From a bacterium ADurb.Bin157 (GTDB lineage Bacteria > Muiribacteriota > Ozemobacteria > Ozemobacterales > Ozemobacteraceae): DNA of 64,000 nucleotides. Below are positions 30,587-63,893 of this stretch, one piece after another; the first letter of the stretch is position 1, and each line of letters begins with the position of its first letter. A program made the position numbers and the translations under genes. The stretch lies in assembly GCA_002070375.1 (NCBI GenBank), contig MWDD01000007.1, positions 12,985 through 76,984 of the forward strand, given 5' to 3'. Under the pieces are notes generated by a model. That model saw nothing but the letters and a program-made list of their open reading frames with translations, was not told the DNA's origin and did not search any database.

Positions 30587-32214
30587 GTAATGATGTTGTT
30601 GCCGGGAAGGCATCTTTTTTTAAATTCATTGTGATTCCGTTTTTTGTTATATCTATTTTTGCGCAGTCTTATTCTAATGCCTTTTTGAATGCCTTTTTAG
30701 TCGATAACTCAAAAGCAGTGGAACTTGCGAGAACTAACAAAATAAGCGACTCACGAGAAGTGTCGTTGATTCTGCAAAATGTGGAAAAGTATAATGAAAA
30801 AGTGCAAGGCAATATTTCTGTCACTCAAACGAACGGTAAAGCCGATATAACCGTGACCGGAGAGTTTTGGTCTGCCGGCTTGAGGCTTTTTTCAATTATT
30901 GTGCTTTATTTTTGGCTGCGTCCTTTTTTTGCATATTTAAAAAAGCGAAATGAAAAACACAAAATTCAGGCTTTAAACAGATATAATAATTTTTACAGAG
31001 GAATTTTTTCATATTTATTGGCTGTGCATGTTATTTGGTTTTTTACAGCTACCTTAAAAACTTATTTGCCCGGTGATTTTTGGCGTGCAATCGTTTATCA
31101 CTCAGTTTGGTGGTTGTGTGAATGCTATTTATTCTATTCGTTTTTAGAGCCTTCTTTGTTTATGTTCGTGAGCGGAGCGTTTTTGCAGCCCGGGGTAATT
31201 GCTCCAAACCGCTCAAGTTTAAGCATATATGGCAGACTTTTAACTATGCTGATTTTTTTGGTGTTGGTTCCTATGGGTATTTTGGCCGCTTATATTTATA
31301 AGGATTATTTTTTGCTTTACGATTTTAAATATAACGCACTGCTTTTGCTGACTACCTCTATTGTTTTTTTGGTGGGAAACATGCAATTGTTGTATAAGTC
31401 GGTTCAAGAGCCTATTGATGTTCTGGCCGAAAAAATGCAAAAACTGGCCGAAGGGGACTACAGTGTCAGCACTTCAGTTCTTTTTAACGACGAAATCGGG
31501 CGTTTGAAGGCAAACTTCAACAGTATGGTCGAACAGCTTAAAGAGCGAGAAGAAATGAAAGATATTTTCGGCAAATATGTTTCTATCGAAATAGCAAAGC
31601 ATCTGATCAAAAATCATAAGGTTGATTTGGGCGGCGAAAATATTATCGCAACGGTATTATTTTCTGATATCAGAAATTTCACTTCTATGAGCGAAAAAAT
31701 GTCACCCGAAGAAGTTGTAACTATGTTAAATACATATTTTGCTTATATTACCGAACCGATAATGGCTAATAACGGCGTAATTAACAAGTTTATCGGTGAC
31801 GCGGTAATGGCTGTTTTCACCCCGCACTTAGGCTCAGAAAACCATGTCGAAGACGCCATAAAAGCAGCAAAAGAAATGCGCGAAAGACTCGCTAATCTAA
31901 ACAATTCAAAAGAGCTCAAATCAGAGATAAAGTTCGGCATAGGTCTCAATACAGGCCCTCTTATTGCCGGCAACATCGGAACACAAAAGCGATTCGAATA
32001 CACGGTCATCGGAGACACGGTTAATGTCGCTTCCCGCATGGAATCTCTTTCAAAAGCTCTTGAGCACGATATCATATTGAGCGAATCAACGGCAGAAAAA
32101 ATCGACAAAGAGTTCGCAAAAACTCTCATATTAGAAAAATCTGACCCCGTGCAGATTAAAGGCAAAAGCCTGCCTATGCCGGTTTACAAGCTGATAGGTT
32201 TTAAAACTGATTAA
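30583..32214 (+). CDS. membrane-bound HAMP-domain class III adenylate/guanylate cyclase
   Basis: TM region, then HAMP (AEGDYSVSTSVLFNDEIGRLKANFNSMVEQL), then a cyclase domain (ATVLFSDIRNFTSMSE...KFIGDAVMAVF...GDTVNVASRMES). Confidence 0.88.
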   Translation: MSNDVVAGKASFFKFIVIPFFVISIFAQSYSNAFLNAFLVDNSKAVELARTNKISDSREVSLILQNVEKYNEKVQGNISVTQTNGKADITVTGEFWSAGLRLFSIIVLYFWLRPFFAYLKKRNEKHKIQALNRYNNFYRGIFSYLLAVHVIWFFTATLKTYLPGDFWRAIVYHSVWWLCECYLFYSFLEPSLFMFVSGAFLQPGVIAPNRSSLSIYGRLLTMLIFLVLVPMGILAAYIYKDYFLLYDFKYNALLLLTTSIVFLVGNMQLLYKSVQEPIDVLAEKMQKLAEGDYSVSTSVLFNDEIGRLKANFNSMVEQLKEREEMKDIFGKYVSIEIAKHLIKNHKVDLGGENIIATVLFSDIRNFTSMSEKMSPEEVVTMLNTYFAYITEPIMANNGVINKFIGDAVMAVFTPHLGSENHVEDAIKAAKEMRERLANLNNSKELKSEIKFGIGLNTGPLIAGNIGTQKRFEYTVIGDTVNVASRMESLSKALEHDIILSESTAEKIDKEFAKTLILEKSDPVQIKGKSLPMPVYKLIGFKTD

Positions 32215-32229
32215 TCGGTTAAGAGATTC

Positions 32230-33198
32230 TTATTTAGAGCAAAGCCCGTTTTCACACACGTTTTCGGTCGGGCAATTTTCGCAGGTGCGCTCTAATTGTA
32301 TTGTTGAATGGGAAATGCCTAACCCTTTTAAGCCTTCGTTCGCTGCCTTTATCACTTCGTCGTCGTTTTCTGAAGAGGGTTTAACCAAATGAACGGTTAA
32401 AGCTATCTCTGTGGTGCTCATGCCCCATATGTGCAGGTCATGAGTTTCTTCAACGCCGGGCAATGATTTTAAAAAATCGTTAACTTTGTCCGGGTCGACG
32501 CTCTCGGGAACAGCATGAAGAGCCAGATTTAATGATTCCTTCAACAGATTCCAAGTGCCCATAAATATTACAATGGCTATGATAATACTCACTATAGGGT
32601 CAATTATGCTGATGCCGCTATATTTTATAATGAAGCCCGAAACCACAACACCGGCTGATACAGCCGCATCTGCAACCATATGCAGATAAGCGCCGCGAAT
32701 GTTTAAATCTTTCTTTTGGTCTTTCATAAACAACATAGCTGTAAAGGCATTGATAATGATGCCGACCGTGGCAACGAAAATTATTGTGTTACCTTCCAGT
32801 GCTACCGGAGCGCTAAATCGCTTGATAGCTTCAATGATAATGCCGCCAACCGCGAGCATAAGAATCAAAGAGTTAAAAAGTGCCGCGAGAATAGAAGAGC
32901 TCTTAAGACCATAGGTGCGGCGCTTTGAAGTGTTCTTTTGTGCCAGGTAATGTGCGCCCCAAGCCAAAAGCAAACCTAGTATGTCGCTTAAATTGTGCCC
33001 GGCGTCGGCTAATAATGAAAGCGAGTTTGTTAAAAAGCCGTAGCCGCCCTCAACTATAACGTAAATAATGTTTAAAGAAATACCTATGGCAAAAATTTTA
33101 TTGTAGTTAGCGGGCCCATGGCTGTGCCCGTGACTGTGACTGTGACTGTGTCCATGGCCATGTGAGCACTCACTGTGGCTATGATTGGTCTCTGGCAT
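32230..33198 (-). CDS. cation diffusion facilitator family metal efflux transporter (CzcD/ZitB-like)
   Basis: Start at MPETNHSH (GGAG upstream). It has a His-rich N-terminus HSHSECSHGHGHSHSHSHGHSHG, CDF TM motifs (LLADAGHNLSD, HMVADAAVS) and a Cys-rich tail CENCPTENVCENGLCSK. Confidence 0.9.
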   Translation of the reverse strand: MPETNHSHSECSHGHGHSHSHSHGHSHGPANYNKIFAIGISLNIIYVIVEGGYGFLTNSLSLLADAGHNLSDILGLLLAWGAHYLAQKNTSKRRTYGLKSSSILAALFNSLILMLAVGGIIIEAIKRFSAPVALEGNTIIFVATVGIIINAFTAMLFMKDQKKDLNIRGAYLHMVADAAVSAGVVVSGFIIKYSGISIIDPIVSIIIAIVIFMGTWNLLKESLNLALHAVPESVDPDKVNDFLKSLPGVEETHDLHIWGMSTTEIALTVHLVKPSSENDDEVIKAANEGLKGLGISHSTIQLERTCENCPTENVCENGLCSK

Positions 33199-33374
33199 GA
33201 TGATAATCTCCGAAATTTGTGAGTTAAGAACAACAAAAGATACTACCATAAAAGACTCTTAAACAAAATACTCAAACTATGAACATAGAAAAATAAAATA
33301 ACTTGCAAATTTAAGTAAAAATCTGTACACTGTTTGCTCTGAAATTACGCCGGATAATCGGCTGGAGCTATTTA

Positions 33375-35198
33375 GTGAAAAGACACATTATTGAACCGGA
33401 AAAGATAAGAAACGTAGCAATTATTGCACACGTTGACCATGGCAAGACGACTTTGGTAGATGCCATGATTAAACAATCAGGTCTATTTAGAGACAATCAG
33501 CGCATAGAAGAGCGCTTTATGGACAGCAACGACATCGAAAGAGAAAGAGGAATTACCATTTTATCCAAAAATCTTTCTCTTGAATACAACGGTTATCGCA
33601 TTAACCTTGTAGACACTCCGGGTCACGTTGATTTCGGCGGTGAAGTAGAGCGAGTTTTACATATGGCAAACGGTTGTTTGCTTCTTGTTGATTCCTTTGA
33701 AGGCCCCATGCCTCAAACACGTTTTGTTTTGAAAAAAGCTTTGGCGGCAGGATTAAGACCTGTTGTGGTTATAAACAAAATTGACAGGCCCGATGCTCGT
33801 GTTGAGGCCGTACAAGATGAAATTCTTGACTTATTCATAGATGTAGGTGTTTCTGAAGATATTCTTGACTGCCCTATCCTTTATGCCTCGGGAAGAGGCG
33901 GATACGCCATCAGAAATATGAGCGACGAAAGGCAAGACATAAGACCTTTGTTAGAAGAAATAATCAAACAAGTTCCTCCGCCCAAAGGAGAGCTTGAAGG
34001 CCCCGCTAAAATGCAAATTACAAGCCTTGACTATAATGACTACGTCGGAAGAATAGGCGTAGGCAGAATATTGCAGGGAGTATTGAAGGGCAAAGCCGAT
34101 GTTTTCAGGCTACATCCGGATCAGGTTCCCGAAAAAAATAAAATTTTGCGATTATACTCATTTAGAGGTATTCAAAGAATAGAAGTTGAAGAAGCGGGTG
34201 CCGGAGACATTGTAGCTATCTGCGGTATAGATGATCTTTCTATCGGAGATACTGTCTGCACAGAATTATGTGACGCAGAACCGGTTATAGCTGTAGACCA
34301 GCCTGTTATTTCAATGACATTTACTGCAAATACGAGCCCGTTCTCCGGAAAAAGCAAGGCAAGTAAATTTCTTACTTCCAGACAAATTTTGTCACGCTTA
34401 CAAAGAGAATTAGAAACCAACGTTTCTATGCGTGTAGAAATAGCCTCTGCCGAAAATGATATGTTTTTGGTTTCGGGGCGCGGCGAATTACATCTGGGTA
34501 TTTTAATAGAAAATATGCGACGTGAAGGTTACGAACTTCAGGTGAGCAAGCCTAGTGCAATCATGAAGCGAGACGAAAACGGAAACTTGGTTGAGCCGAT
34601 AGAAGAACTCGCAATAGATATACCCGATTCGTATATGGGCACAATAATGGAAGTGTTAGGGCCTCGCAGAGCCATCTTAGAAGACACTAAACGTCTTTTG
34701 GACAACTACTTGAGATTGATTTTTTCTGTTCCGGCAAGAGGACTGTTGGGCTTTCGTTCAATGTTTTTAACCTTAACAAACGGAACCGGCATAATGAATC
34801 AATGTTTCAGAGGCTATGAACCCCATAGAGGCGATATTCCCGAAAGCAGAAACGGGGTTATGGTCGCAACTGAAGGCGGAATTGCGACAGGATACGCAAT
34901 TAAGAACCTCTCTGAACGAGGAACGCTTTTTTACGGCCCGGGCGAAGAAATATATGAAGGTCTTGTTGTCGGAGAACGACCCCTCGCAACAGATTTAAAA
35001 GTAAATATAGTAAAAAAGAGACATGTTACCAATCACCGTTCCGCAACTTCTGAAGAACTTGAAAAGCTTCAAGCCCCAAGAAGAATGACTCTTGATCAGG
35101 CGTTGGAATATGTTGGCGATGACGAGTGGGTAGAAATTACTCCGGAAGCAGTAAGATTGAGAAAAAAAGGTGATACGGTAGTCGGACAAAAAAGATGA
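33375..35198 (+). CDS. typA: translational GTPase TypA/BipA
   Basis: IRNVAIIAHVDHGKTTLVD, DTPGHVDFGGEVER and NKIDRPDAR. 607 aa. GTG start. Confidence 0.95.
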   Translation: MKRHIIEPEKIRNVAIIAHVDHGKTTLVDAMIKQSGLFRDNQRIEERFMDSNDIERERGITILSKNLSLEYNGYRINLVDTPGHVDFGGEVERVLHMANGCLLLVDSFEGPMPQTRFVLKKALAAGLRPVVVINKIDRPDARVEAVQDEILDLFIDVGVSEDILDCPILYASGRGGYAIRNMSDERQDIRPLLEEIIKQVPPPKGELEGPAKMQITSLDYNDYVGRIGVGRILQGVLKGKADVFRLHPDQVPEKNKILRLYSFRGIQRIEVEEAGAGDIVAICGIDDLSIGDTVCTELCDAEPVIAVDQPVISMTFTANTSPFSGKSKASKFLTSRQILSRLQRELETNVSMRVEIASAENDMFLVSGRGELHLGILIENMRREGYELQVSKPSAIMKRDENGNLVEPIEELAIDIPDSYMGTIMEVLGPRRAILEDTKRLLDNYLRLIFSVPARGLLGFRSMFLTLTNGTGIMNQCFRGYEPHRGDIPESRNGVMVATEGGIATGYAIKNLSERGTLFYGPGEEIYEGLVVGERPLATDLKVNIVKKRHVTNHRSATSEELEKLQAPRRMTLDQALEYVGDDEWVEITPEAVRLRKKGDTVVGQKR

Positions 35199-35743
35199 TG
35201 AAGACTGTTTGTGTTTTTTGTTCTTCTTCAAATGAAGTATGCGATTTAATTAAAGACGACGGAGCACGGTTGGGTCGGCTATTAGCCGAGCAAGGCCGTG
35301 CTTTGCTTTATGGCGGAACTTCTTGCGGCCTTATGAAGATTGTTGCAGATGCCCATAAAAGCTCAAACGGGTATTTAATAGGTGTGATACCGGGCTATAT
35401 GAAAGATTGCGGCAAGCTTTATGATGGCTTAGACGAGATAATTGAGGTGGAAGATCTAAGGCCCAGAAAACAGGTTATGCTTGATCGATCTGATTTTATT
35501 GTAGCTTTGCCCGGCGGAATAGGGACTTATGATGAATTTTTTGACTTATTGTCACTAAAAATGATAAACAGACATAACAAGCCCATGTATTTATTAAATA
35601 CAGATGAATTTTACGAACCTTTTTTGCAGTTAATAAAGCATGGAATAAAAAACAGAACCATTAAACCGGATTGTATAGAATTGTTTAAGGTTTTTAAGAC
35701 ACCGGAAGAACTGGTGAGAGAAATAAAGGATTACTTGAGTTAA
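35195..35743 (+). CDS. LOG family (TIGR00730) nucleotide phosphoribohydrolase-like protein
   Basis: VCVFCSSS...LYGGTSCGLM...PGGIGTYDEFFD is the LOG PGGxGTxxE motif. Confidence 0.85.
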   Translation: MMKTVCVFCSSSNEVCDLIKDDGARLGRLLAEQGRALLYGGTSCGLMKIVADAHKSSNGYLIGVIPGYMKDCGKLYDGLDEIIEVEDLRPRKQVMLDRSDFIVALPGGIGTYDEFFDLLSLKMINRHNKPMYLLNTDEFYEPFLQLIKHGIKNRTIKPDCIELFKVFKTPEELVREIKDYLS

Positions 35744-35753
35744 GGAGATTTTT

Positions 35754-36806
35754 ATGGAACTATCTGCTATTCTTGCTCTTTCTATGCAAAGAAACGCTTC
35801 TGACATTATATTAACAGTCGGAAGACCCCCAATGTTCAGAATTAACGGTTCTCTTGTGCCCGATACAAGTGCTGTATTATCCTCAGAGGATACAGAAAAA
35901 TTGATTTTTTCTGTATTAAACGATTCTCAGGTTAAAGAATTTAATGAAAAAAACGAATTAGATTTAGCTGTTTTTTTCCCTGATTCGGGGCGCTTCAGAG
36001 TTAATGTTTTCAGACAACAAAATTTTGTTGGAGCTGCTTTTAGACCTATTTTAAGCAAAATTCCCACATTTGAATCTCTCGCACTTTCGCAAACTATTTC
36101 CAATTTTTGTAATATGCCAAGCGGTTTAATCTGCGTTACAGGGCCGACCGGAAGCGGTAAATCAACAACCTTGGCGGCCATGATAAACCACATAAATATG
36201 CATAGGCAGTCACATATAATAACCATAGAAGACCCGATAGAGTTTGTTCATTCCCATATTAGGTCTGTTATCGAACAGCGTGAGGTAGGTAAAGACACAG
36301 AAACCTATACAACAGCTCTTAAATATGTATTAAGACAATGCCCGGATGTTATTTTAATTGGCGAAATGCGTGACTTAGAAACTATAGCAGCAGCAATAAC
36401 AATAGCAGAAACGGGGCACTTGGTGTTTGCAACTTTGCATACACAATCAGCGGCAAAAACTATTGACCGTATAATCGACGTTTTTCCCCCTTATCAGCAG
36501 CAACAAATAAGAGCTCAATTGGCAAGCACCTTGAAAGGTGTTGTTTCGCAAATTCTGTTGCCGAGAAAAGACGGAATGGGAAGAGTTGCAGCGAGAGAAA
36601 TAATGGTTGTAACGCCGGGGATATCAAATCTTATCAGAGAAGGCAAAGTATTCCAGATTCCAACTGCGCTTCAAACGGGAGCTTCAGTAGGAATGATTTC
36701 AATGGATCAGTCTTTGTTGCAACTGAAAAATGCAGGCGTTATATCTGAAGAAGTCTATCAAACAAGGGTTACTCCCAAGCTAGGCGCCGCGCCTTATGGA
36801 AATTAA
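35754..36806 (+). CDS. pilT: type IV pilus retraction ATPase PilT
   Basis: ASDIILTVGRPPMFRING, Walker A GPTGSGKSTT, GEMRDLETI and ATLHT, with the PilT-type C-terminus. Confidence 0.9.
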   Translation: MELSAILALSMQRNASDIILTVGRPPMFRINGSLVPDTSAVLSSEDTEKLIFSVLNDSQVKEFNEKNELDLAVFFPDSGRFRVNVFRQQNFVGAAFRPILSKIPTFESLALSQTISNFCNMPSGLICVTGPTGSGKSTTLAAMINHINMHRQSHIITIEDPIEFVHSHIRSVIEQREVGKDTETYTTALKYVLRQCPDVILIGEMRDLETIAAAITIAETGHLVFATLHTQSAAKTIDRIIDVFPPYQQQQIRAQLASTLKGVVSQILLPRKDGMGRVAAREIMVVTPGISNLIREGKVFQIPTALQTGASVGMISMDQSLLQLKNAGVISEEVYQTRVTPKLGAAPYGN

Positions 36807-36820
36807 GGGAGGAAGATAAA

Positions 36821-37810
36821 ATGAAAGTAACATTAGAACAAATCGAATCGTTTCAGTTGTTTAGTAAACTTTCTAAAACAGAACTGGAAGAATTGATGCC
36901 CATGTTTGAAACAGTAACTTTTAAAGCAGGCGACAGGGTTTTCAAAGAGTGCGAAGAAGGCGATTCTATGTATCTTATACTTAGCGGGAGCGTAGATATA
37001 AGAAAATGTATCGATTTTGAATGTGGCACAGAAAAATCATTGGCAACTTTGCCAAAAGGGGACTTTTTTGGCGAAATGTCTTTGTTGACAGGCGAAAGCA
37101 GGTCTGCATCTGTTTTGGTTTTAGAAGACGCTTTGTTGCTTAAAATTTTGAGAGACAAATATATTGACCTGATGACTAAGAATCCTAGCATGACTTCGCT
37201 TCTTCTAGGCGGTTTGGTTAGCTCTATCTCAAAGCGATTAAGAGCAACAAGCCTCGAATCGGTGACCCTTTATGAAACCGGCAGAATTATCAGTAATACA
37301 AAAAATGTAAAAGATTTGTCCGCTAAAATTTTAGACAGACTTATTAAGTCAACCGGTGCAGAAGCCGGCGTTATTCTTTTTTGGAATGAAATTGTAGAAT
37401 GTTTCGAGATAGAAACCATACTAGGGAATAAAAATGAAACATTGGCTACGGCTTTTAATGGACACAGTAAGTTTTCAGAGTTTTTGCTTGGACTTAAAGA
37501 CCCCTTTGTTACCGATGAAAATCACAAGTTTGTCGAAATTAAAGAAACCGGATTAGACTGCAAAGGAATGGTTTATGTACCGTTACTTACCGATTTGCTA
37601 GACTTAAATGACCCGTATAAATATGTTAAAAAAGTAACCGGAGTTATAATTTTGGGCCACTCAAACCTAAATCATTTTACCCTTTCGAACTTAACTTTGA
37701 TGAAAGGTGTGGCAGAGCAGGTTGCTCAAGCTTTGCTTAATGCGAAGTTATTGCAGGAGAATGAGTCTAGACGAGCCTATGAACAGGTGTATGTAACTCC
37801 CGGGTTTTAA
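36821..37810 (+). CDS. cyclic-nucleotide-binding (CAP_ED) domain protein with GAF-like C-terminal domain
   Basis: FKAGDRVFKECEEGDSMYLILSGSV...FFGEMSLLTGESRSASV is a cNMP phosphate-binding cassette. It lies 14 nt downstream of pilT. Confidence 0.8.
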   Translation: MKVTLEQIESFQLFSKLSKTELEELMPMFETVTFKAGDRVFKECEEGDSMYLILSGSVDIRKCIDFECGTEKSLATLPKGDFFGEMSLLTGESRSASVLVLEDALLLKILRDKYIDLMTKNPSMTSLLLGGLVSSISKRLRATSLESVTLYETGRIISNTKNVKDLSAKILDRLIKSTGAEAGVILFWNEIVECFEIETILGNKNETLATAFNGHSKFSEFLLGLKDPFVTDENHKFVEIKETGLDCKGMVYVPLLTDLLDLNDPYKYVKKVTGVIILGHSNLNHFTLSNLTLMKGVAEQVAQALLNAKLLQENESRRAYEQVYVTPGF

Positions 37811-39527: not shown

Positions 39528-42389
39528 ATGCCTAAGAATACCGACTCTAATGTTCATAAAGAGATTGAAGATTTAGTTACGGATTTACGTTCTACTCTTG
39601 TTACAAAGCGACTTAAAGCAGTTAAAGAATTAGGAAAACTTAAAACCGACTTGGCGGTTGAGCCGTTGGTTTATACATTGAACGATCGTTCAAAAGAGGT
39701 TCGGTGTGCGGCTGTTGAGGCCATTGGTTTAATAAACCCCGCCAATTTGGCAGATTTAATTGTTTATTTAGCCAAAGATAAATCTGCCGATGTTCGTTTG
39801 CGGGTGGCTCACGCTTTAGGTTCAAATACAACAGATTTGTCGGTTGATACTCTGATGATTTTGGTCAGAGATCAAAAAGACGAAGTTGCTAATATGGCTG
39901 CAAAAAGCTTGTCAAAGAACCCGACAGGCAGCTTGGCTTTATTGATAAGGCTTTTTGCCGATAATTCTTGGAAGTTGCGTTCAAGGGCTGCTGCCGCTGT
40001 TACGAGAATGGGCAAAGTCGCTACAGAAGCTTTGAAAGTTGCACTTGAAGACAGCGATTCAAATATTCGTTTTTGGGCGATAACCTGCCTGGGTCATCTT
40101 CGTGACAGATCTAACAGCAAGCTTTTGGTAACAGGATTAAACGATAAAGACCCCGGAGTAAGAATAGCTGCTCTCAGGGCTTTACGAGAACTTGGCGACC
40201 CAAATATCGCATCTATGTTGTTTGAAGCTCTTTCTCAACCGTCAGATCGCGTCAGAGACCTTGTTTATGAGATTTTAAAAGATTTTGGCACACATTCGAT
40301 CCCCTATTTAATGGATTCGCTGTCTAATGAGTTTTGGATGGGGCGTTCGTTAGCGGCCCAAGCCTTAACCGACATGGGTGCTGATGCGGTTGCCCCTTTA
40401 GTAAGCGCCTTAGAAAGCCAAGACAAAGAAAGACGATATTGGGCAATAAAAATACTCGGAAAAATGCGGGAAAAAACGGCTTATGCCGCGATAAAAAAGT
40501 TTCTCAGCGACCCTGACCCCGAAATAAGAATGGCGGCCCTCGAATCTATGGGCTATTATCTTGATACCGAGTCTATACCAAACCTTATAGAGCGGTTTAT
40601 GGACCCCGCTTGGGTTGTTAGAAAGCACGCGGCAAGGGCTGTTACCGCATTTGCTCATAAGGCGGTTCCGTTTTTGATAAAGTCGCTCAAATCAGAAGAA
40701 GAAGATGTCAGATATTGGGCTTTGCGTTCTCTTGGGGATCTTAAGCCAATAGGAATTTTTCCGGTATTGGTTAAGCTTTTTACAGACCGTTCATGGACAA
40801 TAAGAAAAACTACTTCTGATGTTTTATCTGAATACGGGGAAGACGCTTTGATGGAGTTAACGGCTTTGGCGGCAGATTCAATTGAGTCGGAAACCAAATA
40901 TTGGGTTTTGCGTTCACTCGGAAAAATTAAATCAAAGATATCTTTGCCGTTGCTGTTCAGGGCACTTGACGATGAATCAGAATCTATTATGGATGCTGCT
41001 CAGAAAGCTTTGTCAAATTATGGTGAAGAAATAATAGACGATCTGTTTGCTTTGTTTAAAAGTGAAAAACGCAGATTATTAGAGAGTGTGTGCAATACTT
41101 TTCAGCGTATGGACGCAAAGATCGTTGTTCCGAAGTTGTGCCGTAATCTCGGAAAATTTGATGAGCAAATAAGCTATTGGATACGCAGAACTCTTTGCGG
41201 GTTTAAAAAAGACTCGCGCGAAGAGATTTTAAAGCTATTGCAAAGCAAATCTGAAGAAATTAGGCGCCAGGCTGTTATATGCTTAGGACAATTTGGCTTT
41301 GAAGAAGACGCTAAACACGTTTTGCCTTTGTTAAAAGATGAATCATGGCCGACGAGAATCGCGGCAGCAGAGGCTTTGGGTGAATTGGGCGACCCCATTT
41401 CTGTTTCCCATTTAACAGAATCATTAGAAGACGAAGACGAAGATTTGGCCATGGCTTCCATGATTTCGCTTGGTAAAATAGGCGATGAACGGGCTGTTCC
41501 CGGTCTTATATCAACTCTTCACCACGAATCTTGGGCATTAAAGTTTCAGGCAATCAGAATATTAGGTGAAATGCGAGTAAACAGGGCCTTTATAGATCTT
41601 TTAAGATTACTGGACGAAGACACATTAGATCTTAAAACCCATATTATAGGAGCTTTATCGCGTATTTCTCACGCAAAATGCTATGATGAATTAAAGAAAA
41701 GGTTTGAAAAAGAGAAAGATTCAGAAGTCAAAATGGCTTACATTGAAGCTTTTGCAGAAATCGGAAACAAAGACATTCTTTCTTTGATTGTTAAACTGGC
41801 GAGAGAAGGCAACGAAAACCGCGAAGAGCGGCGCGCAGCAATTAGAGCATTAGGTAAAATGCACGCTATTGAAGGAAAAAATGTTTTGTTGGCGGCCTTG
41901 CGCGAAAAAGACGCGGTAATAAACAGAGAGGCGCTTTCTGCGTTAGAGCTTATTCTTGATCGCGACGAGTTTAACAGAACAGAAAAAGCGATTACTGAGG
42001 CAAGAAAAAAGCAAGAGGCTTTTACTGTGGCGTTTAATACGGGAATGAGCAATATGCGCACAAACAATTACACAGAAGCGGAAAAGCATTTAAAAGAGGC
42101 TGTTAAAATTAATCCTAGAGCGTCTTATGTGTATTCGGCTCTGGGAAATCTTTATTACAAAACAGGACGCTTGATAGATTCGACAAAAGCTTATGTTATG
42201 GCAACCGGCTTATCCCCGCAAGATGTGACTTTGAAATTGAATCTGGGAATGGTGTATTATCGAAGAAGAGCTTATAAAGAAGCTGTCGGCATGTTTGAGT
42301 CTGTTTTGTCGGTAGCAGGGCCGAAGTCGCAGCAGGGCGATTATTCTGCAAAAATGATAAATAAAATCAAAAGTGAAATTAAAAAATAA
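39528..42389 (+). CDS. giant HEAT-repeat (PBS-lyase HEAT-like) protein with C-terminal TPR repeats
   Basis: 953 aa. It has about 20 iterations of the pattern ...VR..A..ALG..GD..A...L...L.D....VR. The final ~120 aa are TPR-like (YTEAEKHLKEAVKINP...). Confidence 0.85.
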   Translation: MPKNTDSNVHKEIEDLVTDLRSTLVTKRLKAVKELGKLKTDLAVEPLVYTLNDRSKEVRCAAVEAIGLINPANLADLIVYLAKDKSADVRLRVAHALGSNTTDLSVDTLMILVRDQKDEVANMAAKSLSKNPTGSLALLIRLFADNSWKLRSRAAAAVTRMGKVATEALKVALEDSDSNIRFWAITCLGHLRDRSNSKLLVTGLNDKDPGVRIAALRALRELGDPNIASMLFEALSQPSDRVRDLVYEILKDFGTHSIPYLMDSLSNEFWMGRSLAAQALTDMGADAVAPLVSALESQDKERRYWAIKILGKMREKTAYAAIKKFLSDPDPEIRMAALESMGYYLDTESIPNLIERFMDPAWVVRKHAARAVTAFAHKAVPFLIKSLKSEEEDVRYWALRSLGDLKPIGIFPVLVKLFTDRSWTIRKTTSDVLSEYGEDALMELTALAADSIESETKYWVLRSLGKIKSKISLPLLFRALDDESESIMDAAQKALSNYGEEIIDDLFALFKSEKRRLLESVCNTFQRMDAKIVVPKLCRNLGKFDEQISYWIRRTLCGFKKDSREEILKLLQSKSEEIRRQAVICLGQFGFEEDAKHVLPLLKDESWPTRIAAAEALGELGDPISVSHLTESLEDEDEDLAMASMISLGKIGDERAVPGLISTLHHESWALKFQAIRILGEMRVNRAFIDLLRLLDEDTLDLKTHIIGALSRISHAKCYDELKKRFEKEKDSEVKMAYIEAFAEIGNKDILSLIVKLAREGNENREERRAAIRALGKMHAIEGKNVLLAALREKDAVINREALSALELILDRDEFNRTEKAITEARKKQEAFTVAFNTGMSNMRTNNYTEAEKHLKEAVKINPRASYVYSALGNLYYKTGRLIDSTKAYVMATGLSPQDVTLKLNLGMVYYRRRAYKEAVGMFESVLSVAGPKSQQGDYSAKMINKIKSEIKK

Positions 42390-57730: not shown

Positions 57731-59185
57731 TTACTCTCGTTCGGTGGTCGGATCTTCAGAAGATTTTTTTTCTTTAACAGCAACAACCGCGTTGTTTTTT
57801 TGTTCTGCTTTGTTTTCTTCTTCGTTTATTTCTATTTTTCCCACTACTTTAAAGTTGGCACAGAATTCTTTGTCGTCGTCTTTTCCAAGTTCGGCAGATA
57901 TGTCGTCGCCTTTTTCGAAAGAGCCTTTGAGTATTTGTTCCGCAAGAGGGTTTTCGATATATCTTTGAATGGTTCTGCGCAACGGTCGAGCACCATACTT
58001 AAGGTCAGTTCCTTTGTCTACCAAGAAAGTTTTAAGTTCATCGGTAAAAGTAATTCTCATGTTGAGCGCTGAAACTCTTTCGGCAACTTCTTCAACAAGA
58101 ATATTCAGAATTTGGAGGTTATCGTTTTTGTCTAATGCTCTGAAAACAATTACATCGTCAATTCTGTTTAGAAATTCGGGCGGGAACTTCTTTTCGAGGC
58201 TTTTTCTGGTGATTTTAACTTTTTTCTCATGAGAAAGGTCGTCGAGCTTTTCGGTTGTTTTGGTCGAAGAATCTTCGATTCTGAAACCGGGTTTGGTTTC
58301 TTCGGTTGTTATATCCGCAACACCGATATTTGTTGTAAGAATGATTACGCATTCTCTGAAGCTTACTGTTTCGCCCTTGCTGTCGGTTAGAATTCCTTCG
58401 TCAAGAAGCTGAAGAAGTAGGTTATGCACTTTTTCGTGCGCTTTTTCTATTTCGTCGAAAACAACAACTCCGTTTGGTTTGTTCTTAACAGATTCGGTAA
58501 GATAACCACCTTCGTTGTGCCCGATGTAGCCGGGAGGGGCTCCGATCAGTTTGGCGTATTCGTGGCTCATGGCAAATTCAGAGCAGTCGATTCTGACTAA
58601 GTCAATTTCGCTTCCGGTCATAAATTCACAAAGAGCTTTTGCCAACTCTGTTTTGCCTACACCTGTTTGACCTACGAAAATAAAGCTTCCGACCGGTCTG
58701 CGCGGATTTTTCAGCCCGACTCTGGCTTTTCTGATTGCTTGAGCTACAGCGGTAACAGGTTCATCTTGCCCAATTATTCTTTTGCGCAAGTGATTCTCTA
58801 TTTCCATGTATTTTTGCTGAGCTGCTTTGGCTTCGTCAGATTCAGAGGTAGGAACAGCGTTTCCGGTTGCGGTTGCTTCGTCTACTTGAATTGTAACTTC
58901 TTTTATATCAAGAGACGGGTTAACCTTCACGCATAGGTTGTAAAGCTCCTGTTCGATGATTTCGCCAAGGAGCGGGTATTCGTTGTTCCCGAAAACTAAA
59001 GGTGCAATTTCTTCAGAATAATTAACTACGGCCGATTTGATGATAAGCTTTTTGTATGACTTTTTATCGGTGATTTTAATATTCTTGAAGAGTTGTTGCT
59101 TTTGTTCGGGAGTGTATGATCTTATTGCAACAAAACGATCAAGAGATTCACAAAATTTCATCTTGATTCCTAGTGTGGAATCCAT
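57731..59185 (-). CDS. single-ring Clp/Hsp100-type AAA+ ATPase (D2 module only) with unique N- and C-terminal extensions
   Basis: RIIGQDEPVTAVAQAIRKARVGLKNPRRPVGSFIFVGQTGVGKTELAKAL, DCSEFAMSHEYAKLIGAPPGYIGH and GARPLRRTIQ are ClpA/B/C D2 and D2-small signatures. No D1 or Clp_N is present. Confidence 0.85.
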   Translation of the reverse strand: MDSTLGIKMKFCESLDRFVAIRSYTPEQKQQLFKNIKITDKKSYKKLIIKSAVVNYSEEIAPLVFGNNEYPLLGEIIEQELYNLCVKVNPSLDIKEVTIQVDEATATGNAVPTSESDEAKAAQQKYMEIENHLRKRIIGQDEPVTAVAQAIRKARVGLKNPRRPVGSFIFVGQTGVGKTELAKALCEFMTGSEIDLVRIDCSEFAMSHEYAKLIGAPPGYIGHNEGGYLTESVKNKPNGVVVFDEIEKAHEKVHNLLLQLLDEGILTDSKGETVSFRECVIILTTNIGVADITTEETKPGFRIEDSSTKTTEKLDDLSHEKKVKITRKSLEKKFPPEFLNRIDDVIVFRALDKNDNLQILNILVEEVAERVSALNMRITFTDELKTFLVDKGTDLKYGARPLRRTIQRYIENPLAEQILKGSFEKGDDISAELGKDDDKEFCANFKVVGKIEINEEENKAEQKNNAVVAVKEKKSSEDPTTERE

Positions 59186-59285: not shown

Positions 59286-60698
59286 ATGATTATACAAACA
59301 AAAGCTTTTGAGGATTTATTTGACAGAGGGATAAATTATTTTCGGGCAGGCTTTTATTCATCGGCGTTGGCTGAGTTTAATCAATTAAAAAAACTTTGCC
59401 CTGATTATCCAAACATTGACCATACAATCGAAGCTACCAAAAAGAAAAACGAAGAAATTAATGGTCAGCTTTCTAATTTTATAGAAGAGAACTTTGATGA
59501 CGAAGTTGTGAGTCTCTCTGAAGAATTGTCAGTAGAGAACTCTTCAAATCTGGCTCCTGTAGTTAAATCTTTTTTAACCAAAGGAAAATATTCTCAGGCT
59601 CTTGAAAAGCTGAAACAAGCAGAGGCGATAGTTCCCGAATCAAGATCTTTGTTACTTTTGATGGGTAATACACAAAGACGTTTAGGGCACCTTAAAGAGG
59701 CTGAAAAAACTTTATTGCGAGCTTCACACCTTTTTCCGAATGATCCGGATATTTTGAATAATTTAGGAAATATTTATCTGTTGCTCGGTATGTACCACGA
59801 AGCGGAAGACGTTTTACGTGCAGCTATGCGCCTTTCACCCGATAATGCCCGTCTTTTTAATAATTTGGGCTCTCTTCGCATGCAGACGCATAATTTAGAT
59901 GATGCCGAGAGGCTTTTTAGAAAAGCTCTAAAACTTGAGCCCGGACGCTACATTCTCGCAAAGAATTTAAAAAACCTGCAAACAAGAATGGTTGCATTAG
60001 ACGAAGAAATAGAAAGACTTCGCGAAGAATACTCTTTGCACCCAACATATCTCGATATAGGATTAAGCTTGGCTAAAACTTTGTTTTTCAGAGGTTACCA
60101 TGCGGAGTCTAAAAATGTTTTGAGGGGTCTTTTGAAGAAAAATTCAGGTCTCTCTAATGCTTGGTTTTATCTGGCTATTATTTATGAGATTGTTGACGAT
60201 AAAGATAACGCCTGTGAGTGCTATGAAAATTTGGTAATACACAGCGGAAAAGACAACGCGCCTGAATTTTTGAATTATAAGCGATTATTTAATCAAGGTT
60301 TTATAGAAGAAGCATTGGTCGAAATTAAGAAAATTGCTGTATTAGAACTTGATATTGCCTCGAGCAGAATAAATTTAGGCATTAAATATTTTGAAGATTG
60401 CCTATGGGAAGAAGCCTTAAGACATTTTGAAGAAGCGACCGAAATAAATGATTCTTACCCGGATGCTTATTATTGGAAAGCACTTGCCCTGATTCAATTG
60501 AAGAAAACTGCATTAGCGAAAAAAAACTTAGTAAAAGCTTTGGAGTTAAATCCAAAATATGCCGATGCACATTTTCAGATGGGTCTTTTGATTCGTTCAA
60601 AATCGGCAAAAAAAGCAAAAGAACATTTCAGCGAGGCTTTATCGCTAAATCTGAGGCCTTCTTTCGCGAGAATTGCAGAACGCTTATTAAACGAGTAA
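59286..60698 (+). CDS. TPR-repeat protein
   Basis: 470 aa with many canonical TPR units (e.g. LNNLGNIYLLLGMYHEAEDVLRAAMRLSPDN). It ends 8 nt before the next gene. Confidence 0.8.
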   Translation: MIIQTKAFEDLFDRGINYFRAGFYSSALAEFNQLKKLCPDYPNIDHTIEATKKKNEEINGQLSNFIEENFDDEVVSLSEELSVENSSNLAPVVKSFLTKGKYSQALEKLKQAEAIVPESRSLLLLMGNTQRRLGHLKEAEKTLLRASHLFPNDPDILNNLGNIYLLLGMYHEAEDVLRAAMRLSPDNARLFNNLGSLRMQTHNLDDAERLFRKALKLEPGRYILAKNLKNLQTRMVALDEEIERLREEYSLHPTYLDIGLSLAKTLFFRGYHAESKNVLRGLLKKNSGLSNAWFYLAIIYEIVDDKDNACECYENLVIHSGKDNAPEFLNYKRLFNQGFIEEALVEIKKIAVLELDIASSRINLGIKYFEDCLWEEALRHFEEATEINDSYPDAYYWKALALIQLKKTALAKKNLVKALELNPKYADAHFQMGLLIRSKSAKKAKEHFSEALSLNLRPSFARIAERLLNE

Positions 60699-60706
60699 AA
60701 TAATAG

Positions 60707-63700
60707 ATGGATAAAAAAGTTTTTAAAAAATTTTTCCCGGCTTTTCCGATTGACAATGAATCTCTCGAAAAGTTGCATAAAATTTTGGTTGTGGGCGGGT
60801 GTGTTGATGCAAAAGTCTGGGAAGGCTTTGAAAACACTTGTACAAGCCCCCTTGCTTTTATTGAAAAAGTTGCGGAATTGAAAGAAGTCACTACAGAAGT
60901 GCTTGCATCAGCCGAAGCTGATATTCTTAATGTTCCCTTTATTAAAGTTGACCAAATTGAGATTTCTCAAGATGCTTTTAAGCTTATTGACAGTAAAATT
61001 ATTGTTGAGAAGCAAATTATTCCAATTAAAATAAATGGGCCTGAATTGGTTGTGGGTACAATTCAACCCGGTGATCCGGCAGTGTTTGACGGAATAAAGC
61101 TTACCATGGCAATAAAACCGGCAAAAGTTTTGGCTGATGCACTCGAAGAAAAAATAGCCCAAATGACCGGGGTTAAACAGGTTAAAAAAGGCCCTCAGCA
61201 ACGTAAACGCCTCGGAGACATACTTGTTGATTTAAAATATTGTAAGCCCGAACAACTTGACGAGGCTTTTAAAGGTGCTCGTGATCAAAAACTTCGTTTG
61301 GGTGCGTACCTTGTAAAACAAGGAATAATTACCAATAAACAGCTTTCGGTGGCCTTGTCGAAACAGTTCAATATTCCTTATATAGATCTGGATGAAAGTT
61401 TAGTAGACCCGGTTTTGGCAACCTTGTTGCCCCAAAAGCTATGTTATGAACATTTGCTTTGCCCGGTTAAACGCGAAAACAACAAGCTGGTTGTGGCGAT
61501 GCATGACCCTACAGATATTATTACGATAGACCACATCGAAATGATGACGGGGATGCGTATTTCGCCGGTAGTCAGCTCTGAACTTACAATTATGGCTTCA
61601 CTTGATAATCTTTACGGAGACAGCATAGATTCTTTGTCTGACTCTATAGGTGGTGAAGACAAGCAAGAAGATGTGCTTGACGGCATGGAAATGGGTGAAA
61701 ACGACGCGCCTATTATTAAGTTAGTCAATCTTATACTGACTCAAGCAGTCGTTTTGAATGTTTCGGATATTCACGTCGAAGTCTACGAAAGTGAGTTCAG
61801 AATAAGATTTAGACAAGACGGAACGATGAAGCTTTTTATGACACCCGCCAAAGCGGCTCATACTGCCTTGGTCAGCAGAATAAAGGTTATGGCGAACCTA
61901 GATATAGCTGAAACAAGAAGACCCCAAGACGGCAGAATAAAAATGAACATGCAAAACAGAAAAATTGACTTGCGTGTTTCTTGTATACCCTGTGTTTGGG
62001 GTGAAAAAATTGTTATGAGAATTTGCGACCAAGGTAACTTAAAGGTTGACTTAAAAGACCTTGGTTTTGAGCCTTTTGTGCTTGAAAAATTTATGGGCGG
62101 CGTTGAATCGGCAAACGGAATAGTTCTGGTTACCGGTCCTACCGGTTCCGGTAAAACAACGACTCTTTATTCATCATTGTTTTTGTTGAATAATCCGGCT
62201 GTAAATATTATGACAGCGGAAGACCCGGTCGAATACAATTTGATGGGTATAAATCAGGTACAGTGTCATGCAGATATCGGTTTAGATTTCTCGGCGGCAT
62301 TGAGATCATTTTTGAGACAAGACCCCGATGTTATAATGTTAGGTGAAATTCGTGATTTTGAAACAGCCAGTATAGCCATTAAAGCGGCTATGACGGGACA
62401 CCTTGTTATCTCGACTTTGCATACAAACGATGCGCCGGCAACGGTCGCCCGTTTGCTAAACATGGGTATAGAGCCGTTCAGTCTATCGACCTCATTGAGA
62501 GTTGTGCAGGCACAAAGACTTGTTAAAAAAATATGCAAAACTTGCGCAGAAGAATATAAACCCGACAAAGATCTTTTGCAGTCTCTCGATATAAATGAAA
62601 AAACCTTAAAAAGATTGCATCTTGATGATCAATTTTCAATGGATACATTGGTTTTTAAAAAGGGCGGCGGCTGTCCCGATTGTGACAATAGCGGCTTAAA
62701 AGGCAGACAGGGAATATACGAAGTCCTTGAAATGACACCCGGTTTCAGAGAATTGGTCGAAAGGCGTGCAACAACAGAAGAAATGAGACGACATGCCATA
62801 CAAGACGGTATGTTGAGCTTAAGAGAGTCTGCATTGTATAAACTAATTACAGGCAGAACAACTGTTTCAGAGGTCGTAGGAACAACTGTCGACTCAGGCG
62901 GACACGAGGAAGAAGAGGAAGAAAAGAAGCCAAAAATGGCTGAAGAGTCTTCAGATGCAGAAGTTGAAAGATTAAAACAAGAAGAAGCAAAGCAAAAAGC
63001 AATAGAAGAAGCGGCAAGGCAAAGAGAAGTTGTTACCATAGGCTCTTCTGTAGGCTTAAAAGACTTAACAGCGGAGCTTCACGAGTTTAACTGCTTGCTT
63101 AACAAAATGGCAAAAACCTCTTCTGCCGTTTCCGGAAGTGCTTCGAATGTTTTGAATTCCGAAATTTTGAAAGCTAACATAGTTGTGCCTCTTCAGACAA
63201 TAAAAGCATACGCATCAAAATCGGAGGACGCTTCAAAAATGCTTCCTGCAATTAAGGCGCAGGGGCAAAAGATGGAACACAATATTAAAAACCTTGTGAG
63301 CCACTTCTCTGAGTTTTCACCGAAATTTGCAAAAGCACAACTTAATCAATTAGTGGAAAAAGAAATTTTTGCCGCCCTTAAAGACCATGTTGTTACTGCA
63401 AGATTAGTTTCCGGTATAAAAGACATCGGTAAAAACCTTAAGCTTTCGAAAAACCTTTCTGTAGATCTGCCTCTTGTTAAAATAGACAACACAGCCTTTT
63501 CTACCATTGCTTCTAACGTTTTTATTAATGCGTTAATAGGTCTGGGCGAAAAAGGCGGCGAAGTCAAAGTCGTAACGAGAATTAAGCCAAAATCCGACAA
63601 AATAGTTGAATTGATAATATTTGACAGCGGTTCAGGTATTCCTGCAAATGTGCAAACGAAATTATTTGAACCTTTTAACGGTAAAAAGACTTTGGGACTC

Positions 63701-63811
63701 GGTCTTTCGGTTGTAAAAAAGCTTTTAAAAGAACTTGGGGGAGAGATTTCAATCAAAAGTGTTCCCGGTAAGAGTACAATGGTTACAATGGAGTTTCCGA
63801 TAATTAAATAA
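60707..63811 (+). CDS. PilB/GspE/MshE-family secretion ATPase (T2SSE_N + MshEN + T2SSE_N + ATPase core with tetracysteine Zn site) fused to a histidine kinase transmitter (H-box + HATPase_c)
   Basis: The MshEN tandem motif is RLGDILVDLKYCKPEQLDEAFKGA-RDQKL-RLGAYLVKQGIITNKQLSVALSKQ (61208-61366). ATPase motifs are Walker A GPTGSGKTTT, DPDVIMLGEIRD, STLHTNDA and CKTC...CPDC. An acidic linker follows, then H-box ELHEFNCLL (His at 63080-63082), N-box SNVFINAL, G1 FDSGSGIP, FEPF and G2 GLGLSVV. Confidence 0.85.
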   Translation: MDKKVFKKFFPAFPIDNESLEKLHKILVVGGCVDAKVWEGFENTCTSPLAFIEKVAELKEVTTEVLASAEADILNVPFIKVDQIEISQDAFKLIDSKIIVEKQIIPIKINGPELVVGTIQPGDPAVFDGIKLTMAIKPAKVLADALEEKIAQMTGVKQVKKGPQQRKRLGDILVDLKYCKPEQLDEAFKGARDQKLRLGAYLVKQGIITNKQLSVALSKQFNIPYIDLDESLVDPVLATLLPQKLCYEHLLCPVKRENNKLVVAMHDPTDIITIDHIEMMTGMRISPVVSSELTIMASLDNLYGDSIDSLSDSIGGEDKQEDVLDGMEMGENDAPIIKLVNLILTQAVVLNVSDIHVEVYESEFRIRFRQDGTMKLFMTPAKAAHTALVSRIKVMANLDIAETRRPQDGRIKMNMQNRKIDLRVSCIPCVWGEKIVMRICDQGNLKVDLKDLGFEPFVLEKFMGGVESANGIVLVTGPTGSGKTTTLYSSLFLLNNPAVNIMTAEDPVEYNLMGINQVQCHADIGLDFSAALRSFLRQDPDVIMLGEIRDFETASIAIKAAMTGHLVISTLHTNDAPATVARLLNMGIEPFSLSTSLRVVQAQRLVKKICKTCAEEYKPDKDLLQSLDINEKTLKRLHLDDQFSMDTLVFKKGGGCPDCDNSGLKGRQGIYEVLEMTPGFRELVERRATTEEMRRHAIQDGMLSLRESALYKLITGRTTVSEVVGTTVDSGGHEEEEEEKKPKMAEESSDAEVERLKQEEAKQKAIEEAARQREVVTIGSSVGLKDLTAELHEFNCLLNKMAKTSSAVSGSASNVLNSEILKANIVVPLQTIKAYASKSEDASKMLPAIKAQGQKMEHNIKNLVSHFSEFSPKFAKAQLNQLVEKEIFAALKDHVVTARLVSGIKDIGKNLKLSKNLSVDLPLVKIDNTAFSTIASNVFINALIGLGEKGGEVKVVTRIKPKSDKIVELIIFDSGSGIPANVQTKLFEPFNGKKTLGLGLSVVKKLLKELGGEISIKSVPGKSTMVTMEFPIIK

Positions 63812-63821
63812 GTTTTATTAA

Positions 63822-63862
63822 AGTGCCGGAGGTTTATTAAAAAAGCCTTCGGCACTTTTTTT
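63822..63862 (+). terminator. intrinsic terminator
   Basis: agtgccggagg / ccttcggcact (11 bp, one G-U) followed by a T-run. Confidence 0.8.
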
Positions 63863-63893
63863 ATATTTTTTTTGGTTTTTTTATTAAAAGTAC

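Follow-up and report, generated by a model that had tools for sequence, protein, structure and literature searches.

A PilB-like ATPase with a histidine-kinase-like tail lacking the phospho-acceptor histidine in Candidatus Riflebacteria

What is the C-terminal tail of a PilB-like ATPase for, when this tail is built like a histidine kinase? The question is raised by a single gene in a 64,000-nucleotide stretch of DNA (the window; positions 12,985 to 76,984 of the forward strand of contig MWDD01000007.1, assembly GCA_002070375.1) from bacterium ADurb.Bin157, a member of the Ozemobacteraceae. The gene occupies 60707..63811 on the plus strand and, as the open reading frame list bears out, encodes one continuous protein of 1034 amino acids. 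A first-pass annotation made from the letters alone had described the product as a secretion or pilus ATPase with an intact MshEN motif for binding of cyclic di-GMP (c-di-GMP), fused in frame to a complete histidine kinase, and had proposed that one polypeptide couples c-di-GMP sensing, motor activity and phosphotransfer signalling. Pfam profile scans bear out MshEN, T2SSE and HATPase_c domains in the protein; the three-way integrator of c-di-GMP, motor and phosphorelay of that proposal, however, it is not. The protein is divided as follows (all on the plus strand).

60707..63811, +, whole gene: PilB-like ATPase with a C-terminal module of dimerization/phosphotransfer-like (DHp) and catalytic ATP-binding (CA) domains lacking the histidine, 1034 residues (open reading frame list; orthologs of similar length with the same Pfam architecture)
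60707..61171, +, N-terminal extension, residues 1-155: additional MshEN/T2SSE_N-like domain, RLG c-di-GMP motifs absent (Pfam, PDB 7lko, AlphaFold2)
61208..61366, +, MshEN_N c-di-GMP-type site, residues 168-220, 53 residues: degenerate motif 1, 5-residue spacer, canonical motif 2 (NF053729, regular expressions, family columns, register on MshE 5htl)
61367..61621, +, MshEN_C subdomain, residues 221-305 (best stretch of Pfam MshEN)
61697..62890, +, T2SSE hexameric ATPase core, residues 331-728 (Pfam T2SSE, TIGR02538, invariant motifs)
62135-62164, +, Walker A inside the T2SSE core
62534-62683, +, tetracysteine zinc site inside the T2SSE core
62891..63046, +, acidic variable linker, residues 729-780 (no column conserved at 90% or more; low model confidence)
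63047..63118, +, upstream amphipathic helix, residues 781-804, with E790, F794 and the His792 codon at 63080-63082 (column counts, AlphaFold2)
63158..63307, +, DHp-like helical hairpin, residues 818-867: canonical phospho-His position Ala823 (63173-63175), next residue Asn824 (profile alignment, AlphaFold2)
63329..63808, +, CA (HATPase_c) domain, residues 875-1034 (Pfam HATPase_c, profile match to ZraS, model confidence)
63515-63535, 63623-63643 and 63695-63715, +, N-box, G1 and G2, which like the F-box are intact inside the CA domain

The fold of the tail was addressed with an AlphaFold2 model of residues 725-1034 (mean predicted local distance difference test, pLDDT, 81; predicted template modelling score, pTM, 0.69). 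It contains a linker helix (750-775), a helix of low confidence (781-804, pLDDT about 60) that is followed by a disordered loop, a helical hairpin (818-837 and 842-867, pLDDT 71-92) and an alpha/beta domain (875-1034, pLDDT above 90). Using Foldseek, the top PDB match of the tail was the whole cytoplasmic part of HK853 (E 7.5e-16, template modelling score TMt 0.75, root-mean-square deviation 3.3 Å, about 250 columns), with ZraS, LvrB, DivL, YycG, KinB and RetS among the further matches. The modelling that had been recommended as a check thus gives a DHp hairpin and a CA domain with HK853 as closest structure, and the predicted fold is that of a genuine histidine-kinase DHp-CA module. On the profile side, Pfam HATPase_c (PF02518) covers residues 927-1031 with 58-59 bits (cutoff 26.4), and a profile of the family compared with PDB sequences matches ZraS over the CA region at 1e-19.

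The ATP pocket of this module is fully kept. In the family alignment, whose 94 members are the basis of all counts given as x/94, the N-box residue N941, the G1 residues D973, G975 and G977 and the G2 residues G997 and G999 are each found in 94/94, and F990 is invariant in a set of 30 sequences; the boxes NVFINAL, DSGSGIP, FEPF and GLGLSVV had therefore been read correctly from the sequence. With 33% of the CA columns conserved at 90% or more, the alignment points to clear purifying selection on the tail. The acidic linker in front of it varies between 31 and 70 residues in the orthologs, has no column conserved at that level and is modelled with low pLDDT. A mini-motif KPKM[AS]E is found in the linker of 44/94 members.

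The phospho-acceptor is a different matter. When the family profile was aligned to PDB sequences, FixL 'LAHELNQPLAAI' and HK853 'ISHELRTPLTAI' fell on the family stretch LKxN[IL]xDPLxxI, the H-boxes ISHELRTPL of HK853 and LAHELNQPL of FixL both registering on LKxN[IL]xDPL. The phospho-accepting His260 of HK853 and the corresponding histidine of FixL are thereby placed at profile position 85, which is Ala823, and the catalytic glutamate (Glu261 in HK853) at Asn824. Position 823 lies 118 residues before N941, close to the spacing between phospho-His and N-box Asn in HK853, which we take to be about 120, while His792 lies 149 residues before it. In the family, position 823 is hypervariable (Ser in 35, Lys in 16, Gln in 15, Ala in 9, Asn and His in 7 each, and others). 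Around it, remnants of the H-box persist as E819, L821, N824, P828 and L829 with canonical spacing to the N-box, L821, N824, P828 and L829 being conserved in the family. A Pfam scan of the isolated C-terminal 306 residues at E<=10 reported HATPase_c as the only domain and none of the HisKA-type families. Of the kinase profiles expected at the C-terminus, HATPase_c was thus recovered with 58 bits and HisKA was not, and the histidine kinase, with Ala-Asn instead of His-Glu at its true H-box position, is not 'complete'. As judged from the alignment, this protein has other residues in place of the phospho-acceptor histidine and of the catalytic acid next to it.

The first-pass annotation had assigned the H-box to ELHEFNCLL and the phosphorylation site to its His792. 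This segment (residues 790-798) is located on the helix upstream of the DHp hairpin and is separated from it by a loop of 6-25 residues that varies in length and sequence. At residue 792, His occurs in 68/94 members; the rest have Gln (14 members), Arg, Lys, Glu, Ser or Leu, and the relative P0002 (78% identity in the alignment) is one of those with Gln. The histidine is hence dispensable in 28% of the members. On the grounds of conservation, register and structure, H792 was rejected as the H-box. As neither the true H-box position nor His792 offers a conserved acceptor, phosphotransfer to a response regulator is unlikely as the conserved function of the family. Other ways to rescue a phospho-acceptor were also rejected. 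The histidines H858, H866 and H894 are Phe or Tyr in many orthologs and therefore look like structural aromatic residues, and a histidine alternating between 792 and 823 in a complementary fashion was not seen, 25/94 members having His at neither position. Coupled covariation from HE to QA, as a sign of a functional dyad, was not seen either, as positions 792 and 793 vary independently and HA, QE, SE and RE all occur. A distant branch (38-42% identity) lacks His at both sites; it retains the N-box and G2, and G1 as well except in P0138.

Around the non-conserved His792, E790 and F794 are found in 93/94 members on the same upstream helix. Their conservation argues that this helix matters, though not via its histidine, and both the E790/F794 helix and the KPKM[AS]E mini-motif of the linker resemble docking motifs, for which the tetratricopeptide repeat (TPR) protein encoded directly upstream is a possible partner.

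At the other end of the protein, residues 169-728 correspond to positions 2-563 of the 564 positions of TIGR02538, the NCBIfam model for type IV-A PilB, with 656.2 bits, slightly short of the 675.65 bits set as equivalog cutoff, and Pfam T2SSE covers residues 331-724 with 435 bits. The assignment as a PilB/MshE-type ATPase is thereby confirmed. The Walker A motif GPTGSGKTTT (477-486), E505/D506, the catalytic glutamate E547, H565/H572 of the His box and the zinc cysteines C610, C613, C656 and C659 (CKTC...CPDC) are present as first described and are invariant in the orthologs, with K483 and E547 in 94/94. The core is the most conserved region of the protein (83% mean identity to the query, 63% of the columns conserved at 90% or more), and these residues indicate a complete PilB-type ATPase with intact catalytic residues whose motor is almost certainly active.

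Pfam places two MshEN modules in the protein, at residues 74-155 (36 bits) and 221-305. The first belongs to an N-terminal extension that is modelled with pLDDT 81-89 and matches PDB 7lko over residues 28-149; a pattern search of residues 1-155 for the RLG c-di-GMP motif gave no match. The c-di-GMP-type site follows at residues 168-220, where the NCBIfam model NF053729 (c-di-GMP_motif) is passed with 48 bits (cutoff 38). Of its two half-motifs, the second (197-220) fits the strict published pattern, as had been noticed before, and the first (168-191), formerly called slightly degenerate, departs at K177 and A191 from the strict pattern of the MshEN paper and even from its relaxed form; the motif as a whole can therefore not be called intact. 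This degeneracy is a family trait, with Lys at 177 and Ala at 191 in 83/94 members each. Motif 1 retains R168-L169-G170-D171, L184 and F188. On Vibrio cholerae MshE (5htl) the site registers with an offset of 159, so that R168-L169-G170-D171 correspond to R9-L10-G11-D12, R197 to R38 and Q220 to Q61, with K177 in place of the turn glycine Gly18 and A191 in place of Gln32. Substitutions of Arg9, Asp12 or Gln32 in MshE shift the affinity by about fivefold at most, and loss of any of the conserved hydrophobic residues lowers it more than tenfold (PMC5013675). These mutation data suggest that the changes in motif 1 are tolerable. As the conserved hydrophobic positions are retained here and changes at Arg9, Asp12 and Gln32 are mild in MshE, the fusion protein likely binds c-di-GMP.

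The fusion shares with the ATPases PilB of Myxococcus xanthus, MshE of V. cholerae and PilF of Thermus thermophilus the MshEN domain with the 53-residue c-di-GMP-type site, as well as the N2 domain and a C-terminal core with Walker A/B, Asp and His boxes and a tetracysteine zinc site. PilF even has several N-terminal modules of MshEN type, and the fusion likewise has more than one. In contrast to these proteins, the fusion alone carries about 300 additional C-terminal residues of linker and DHp-CA module, its gene lies apart from pilus genes and beside TPR and ClpB-D2-like genes, it stays below the equivalog cutoff, and in the first half of its c-di-GMP motif the turn Gly is replaced by Lys and the Gln by Ala. 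A similar comparison can be made for the tail. With the class I (HisKA-type) kinases HK853, ZraS, NtrB and FixL it has in common the DHp-CA fold, the N, G1, F and G2 boxes and the remnants of the H-box. It differs from them in the acceptor His, which is Ala here and hypervariable in the family, in the following Glu/Asp, which is Asn, and in the lack of a HisKA match, of a sensor or transmembrane input and of a response regulator nearby (window and available flanks of 37 loci).

How could such a protein work? The explanation that we put forward, and to which we give about an even chance, is that it is a PilB-like paralog whose tail acts as an ATP/ADP-binding pseudokinase regulatory module without any His-to-Asp phosphorelay. 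The DHp-like hairpin would either pair neighbouring subunits of the ATPase ring or dock a partner. Candidates are the TPR protein from the same operon, a single-domain response regulator and the DHp domain of another kinase. The c-di-GMP level and the nucleotide state of the tail would then be coupled to the activity or output of the PilB-like motor and not to the phosphorylation of a regulator. Such a mode would resemble that of the pseudokinases DivL (PMC4211667) and RetS. DivL from Caulobacter has Tyr in place of the His (PMC4211667), and both DivL and Pseudomonas RetS, which are among the Foldseek matches, have like the fusion a DHp-CA module without a usable or needed phospho-His; they use the DHp domain for docking instead of phosphotransfer, which by analogy might be expected for the fusion, too. 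Unlike in these two, the ATP-binding residues of the fusion are strictly conserved and the module is attached to a secretion-type AAA+ motor and not to PAS or periplasmic sensor domains.

Several points weigh against the pseudokinase explanation. Invariant ATP-binding residues imply selection on nucleotide binding or phosphotransfer, which the classical pseudokinase DivL does not need, and there may be some catalytic role with a non-His acceptor or, in one clade, with His792. Moreover, His792-Glu793 is retained in 63/94 members and resembles an H-box of the HEFN type. Finally, the AlphaFold2 model of the full-length protein (pTM 0.37) holds no usable information on how the domains are arranged and says nothing on the placement of the tail on the hexamer.

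Less probable, and in our eyes a tentative proposal, is a regulatory design not described before, a PilB-type hexameric motor that carries its own kinase-derived receiver/transmitter. The His-less tail would sense a phosphorylated single-domain regulator or phosphorylate a target other than His and, together with the TPR partner, turn c-di-GMP and the state of the motor into a signal. If this were true, the signalling role that has long been suspected for PilB would have a covalent 'Rosetta-stone' link in the fusion. PilB from M. xanthus signals for exopolysaccharide production (PMC5544727; reviewed in PMC11656802) and, like the fusion, is a PilB-type ATPase tied to signalling; it binds c-di-GMP via its MshEN domain. 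The kinase-type link is made between separate proteins there, and in the fusion it is, as predicted from sequence, covalent.

That the protein is a working, non-canonical histidine kinase appears rather improbable. In this case His792-Glu793 would serve as acceptor in the clade of the window, the helix would fold back onto the DHp bundle and an orphan regulator would be encoded elsewhere. The retained His-Glu pair is present in the protein studied here, its surrounding ELHEFN resembles H-boxes of the HEFN/HDFNNLL type, the helix also bears the nearly invariant E790 and F794, the CA domain has a fully conserved ATP pocket, and loci of the distant branch encode a stand-alone Response_reg protein one or two genes past the adjacent TPR gene. 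All this has to be set against the replacement of H792 in 26/94 members by Gln, Arg, Lys, Glu, Ser or Leu, even in the relative with 78% identity, and against the independent variation of H and E at 792/793. The helix itself has low pLDDT and is held away from the DHp hairpin by the variable loop, and homology puts the phospho-His at A823 in a region without HisKA profile match. As had been stated before, no response regulator is encoded in the window, where none of the open reading frames of at least 60 residues contains a receiver (REC) domain; the available flanks of 37 Riflebacteria loci gave no CheY-like match, and no response regulator was found in 10-kb flanks, nor a Response_reg in annotated neighbourhoods.

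Similarly improbable is a CA domain that acts as an active kinase for Ser, Thr or Tyr and has its substrate in the PilB core, in the TPR partner or in some other protein. Kinases with histidine-kinase fold that phosphorylate Ser have precedent in the GHKL Ser kinases SpoIIAB and RsbW and in the PDK/BCKDK kinases. The residues of the N, G1, F and G2 boxes are wholly invariant despite the loss of the His, and the TPR partner is strictly co-operonic. Where the DHp-like helices come near the expected ATP site, however, no invariant Ser, Thr or Tyr was identified, the invariant residues being E, N, K, Q and P, no similarity to SpoIIAB or RsbW ranked above the classical histidine kinases, and the idea is purely inferential.

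Still less credit can be given to the idea that the protein is the bona fide extension motor of a pilus or secretion system of this organism and the kinase-like tail a neutral or structural appendage. The PilB model is indeed matched from end to end and all ATPase motifs are invariant in a core that reaches the highest identity within the protein. Against it stand the TIGR02538 score of 656, which is below the equivalog cutoff, the clear purifying selection on the tail as seen in its CA columns, and the gene neighbourhood: across the loci reaching upstream, the fusion is never found beside pilC, pilT or pilin genes. In a related genome, the 5.2-Mb chromosome of another member of the Ozemobacteraceae, a plain PilB of 628 residues is encoded in a cluster with PilT, pilin and prepilin-peptidase genes about 300 kb away from the fusion. 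Because the pilus cluster of this relative has its own plain PilB, the fusion is best described, from its sequence and gene context, as an accessory PilB paralog outside the pilus cluster, and the role as pilus or secretion motor assigned at first is not established.

The fusion gene is conserved across Candidatus Riflebacteria/Ozemobacteraceae and is candidate-phylum-wide. From 5.8 billion proteins searched, about 95-100 ortholog clusters were recovered (54-99% identity, 1012-1056 residues), all with MshEN, T2SSE and HATPase_c and, where a source name is given, from Candidatus Riflebacteria, Rifleibacterium or Ozemobacteraceae. In a survey with one genome per GTDB species the tail was present in the genomes of 37 species, most of which bear names of this Candidatus Riflebacteria/Ozemobacteraceae lineage. 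The frame runs on without interruption in these roughly 95 clusters, which are independent and derive from many assemblies, and in the 37 genomes, no ortholog being split by a stop codon or frameshift, and the same architecture is seen in the distant branch; that an assembly, frameshift or gene-calling error has joined two separate genes can therefore be dismissed. When 1.84 billion cluster representatives were searched exhaustively with HMMER, P0124, P0133, P0135 and P0144 (38-42% identity, 1003-1028 residues, the same three Pfam domains) emerged as members of the distant branch. Other long matches from this search were considered as further kinase fusions and rejected, as they are mostly tandem T2SSE-T2SSE proteins and only the four named share the architecture. 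Such double ATPases of about 1000 residues are P0121, P0122, P0126, P0127, P0130, P0132, P0134, P0137, P0140, P0146 and P0159, and P0123 has in addition a T2SSF platform-protein domain. Three bins labelled 'Candidatus Avigastranaerophilus sp.' or 'Erysipelotrichia bacterium' (L006, L011 and L020) carry a fusion of Riflebacteria type with 65-70% identity, accompanied in L006 and L011 by the AAA+ and TPR genes described below; these bins are probably mislabelled or contaminated.

Literature searches in full text found no described fusion of PilB with a histidine kinase, in agreement with the initial impression that the architecture is undescribed. In the MshEN paper the fusions are given as ATPase, glycosyltransferase and 'other' ones, without mention of kinases, and the 2024 review on PilB cofactors describes no such fusion. 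The parts, namely PilB/MshE ATPases, the MshEN site, histidine-kinase catalytic domains and histidine pseudokinases, are known, and what we did not find described is the combination, as deduced from sequence, of a T2SSE motor with a DHp-CA module that lacks the His and conserves the ATP pocket. The sequences have been public for years under the automatic names 'PilB', 'TadA' or 'histidine kinase', all of which are inadequate for these proteins. PilB ATPases are regulated by c-di-GMP and the route from motor state to signalling pathways is unclear, for which the fusion offers a natural and testable case of coupling that should interest specialists for pili and for two-component systems alike. 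It also represents an unusual bacterial pseudokinase that has lost the phospho-His and its catalytic partner and perfectly kept the ATP pocket, posing the question what the nucleotide is used for.

The surroundings of the fusion gene contain the following features.

57731..59185, -, stand-alone ClpB-D2-like AAA+ gene, 484 residues, divergently transcribed (Pfam AAA_2 and ClpB_D2-small; ClpB model positions 550-847)
59286..60698, +, cytoplasmic TPR protein, 470 residues, ending 8 nucleotides before the ATG of the fusion (Pfam TPR families)
63820..63868, +, hairpin with T-run resembling an intrinsic terminator directly after the stop codon (16-pair stem, then TTTTATATTT)

The TPR protein is taken as cytoplasmic because it has no apparent signal peptide. 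Its spacing of 8 nucleotides to the fusion, from which an operon had been proposed as probable, was confirmed, the operon is supported, and the TPR gene is found directly upstream in all loci that extend far enough; there the order AAA+ (-), TPR of about 470 residues (+) and fusion (+) is fixed. Of the three proteins, conservation across loci is highest in the AAA+ protein (76-89% identity, compared with 45-66% for the TPR protein and 54-70% for the fusion), whose N-terminal 120 or so residues have no family match. The idea of an anti-phage defence system was discarded, as PADLOC gave no more than generic AAA+ and TPR similarities. Downstream of the fusion, in a part that the window no longer reaches, the related loci encode a secreted protein of 364-656 residues without confident Pfam match (L001 13129-14223, L002 13105-15075 and equivalents), which has a conserved C-terminal segment of about 80-140 residues, and the next gene is an RluB-like pseudouridine synthase.

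The distant branch has a context of its own, which is alike in two loci (L042 and L043), with an HTH_17 gene upstream and a small convergent TPR gene downstream. In these regions (L042 13149-16376 and L043 13112-14855; branch members P0135 and P0144) the stand-alone Response_reg gene with 139-147 residues lies one or two genes beyond the TPR gene, adjoined in L042 by a pilin-like N_methyl gene. This hints at the regulator as a possible partner in the distant branch, one that is absent near the Riflebacteria genes.

In the remaining window the sole other T2SSE open reading frame is PilT-like (350 residues, 35754-36806) and lies 24 kb away from the fusion. It adjoins a protein predicted to bind cyclic nucleotides (36821-37810), and a HAMP-adenylate/guanylate cyclase is encoded at 30583-32214, all three being about 24-30 kb upstream of the fusion, making a regulatory pairing of cyclic nucleotides and PilT in the region 30583-37810 possible. 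Between them and the fusion, at 39528-42389, the window encodes a protein of 953 residues that consists nearly completely of HEAT repeats with TPRs at its C-terminus.

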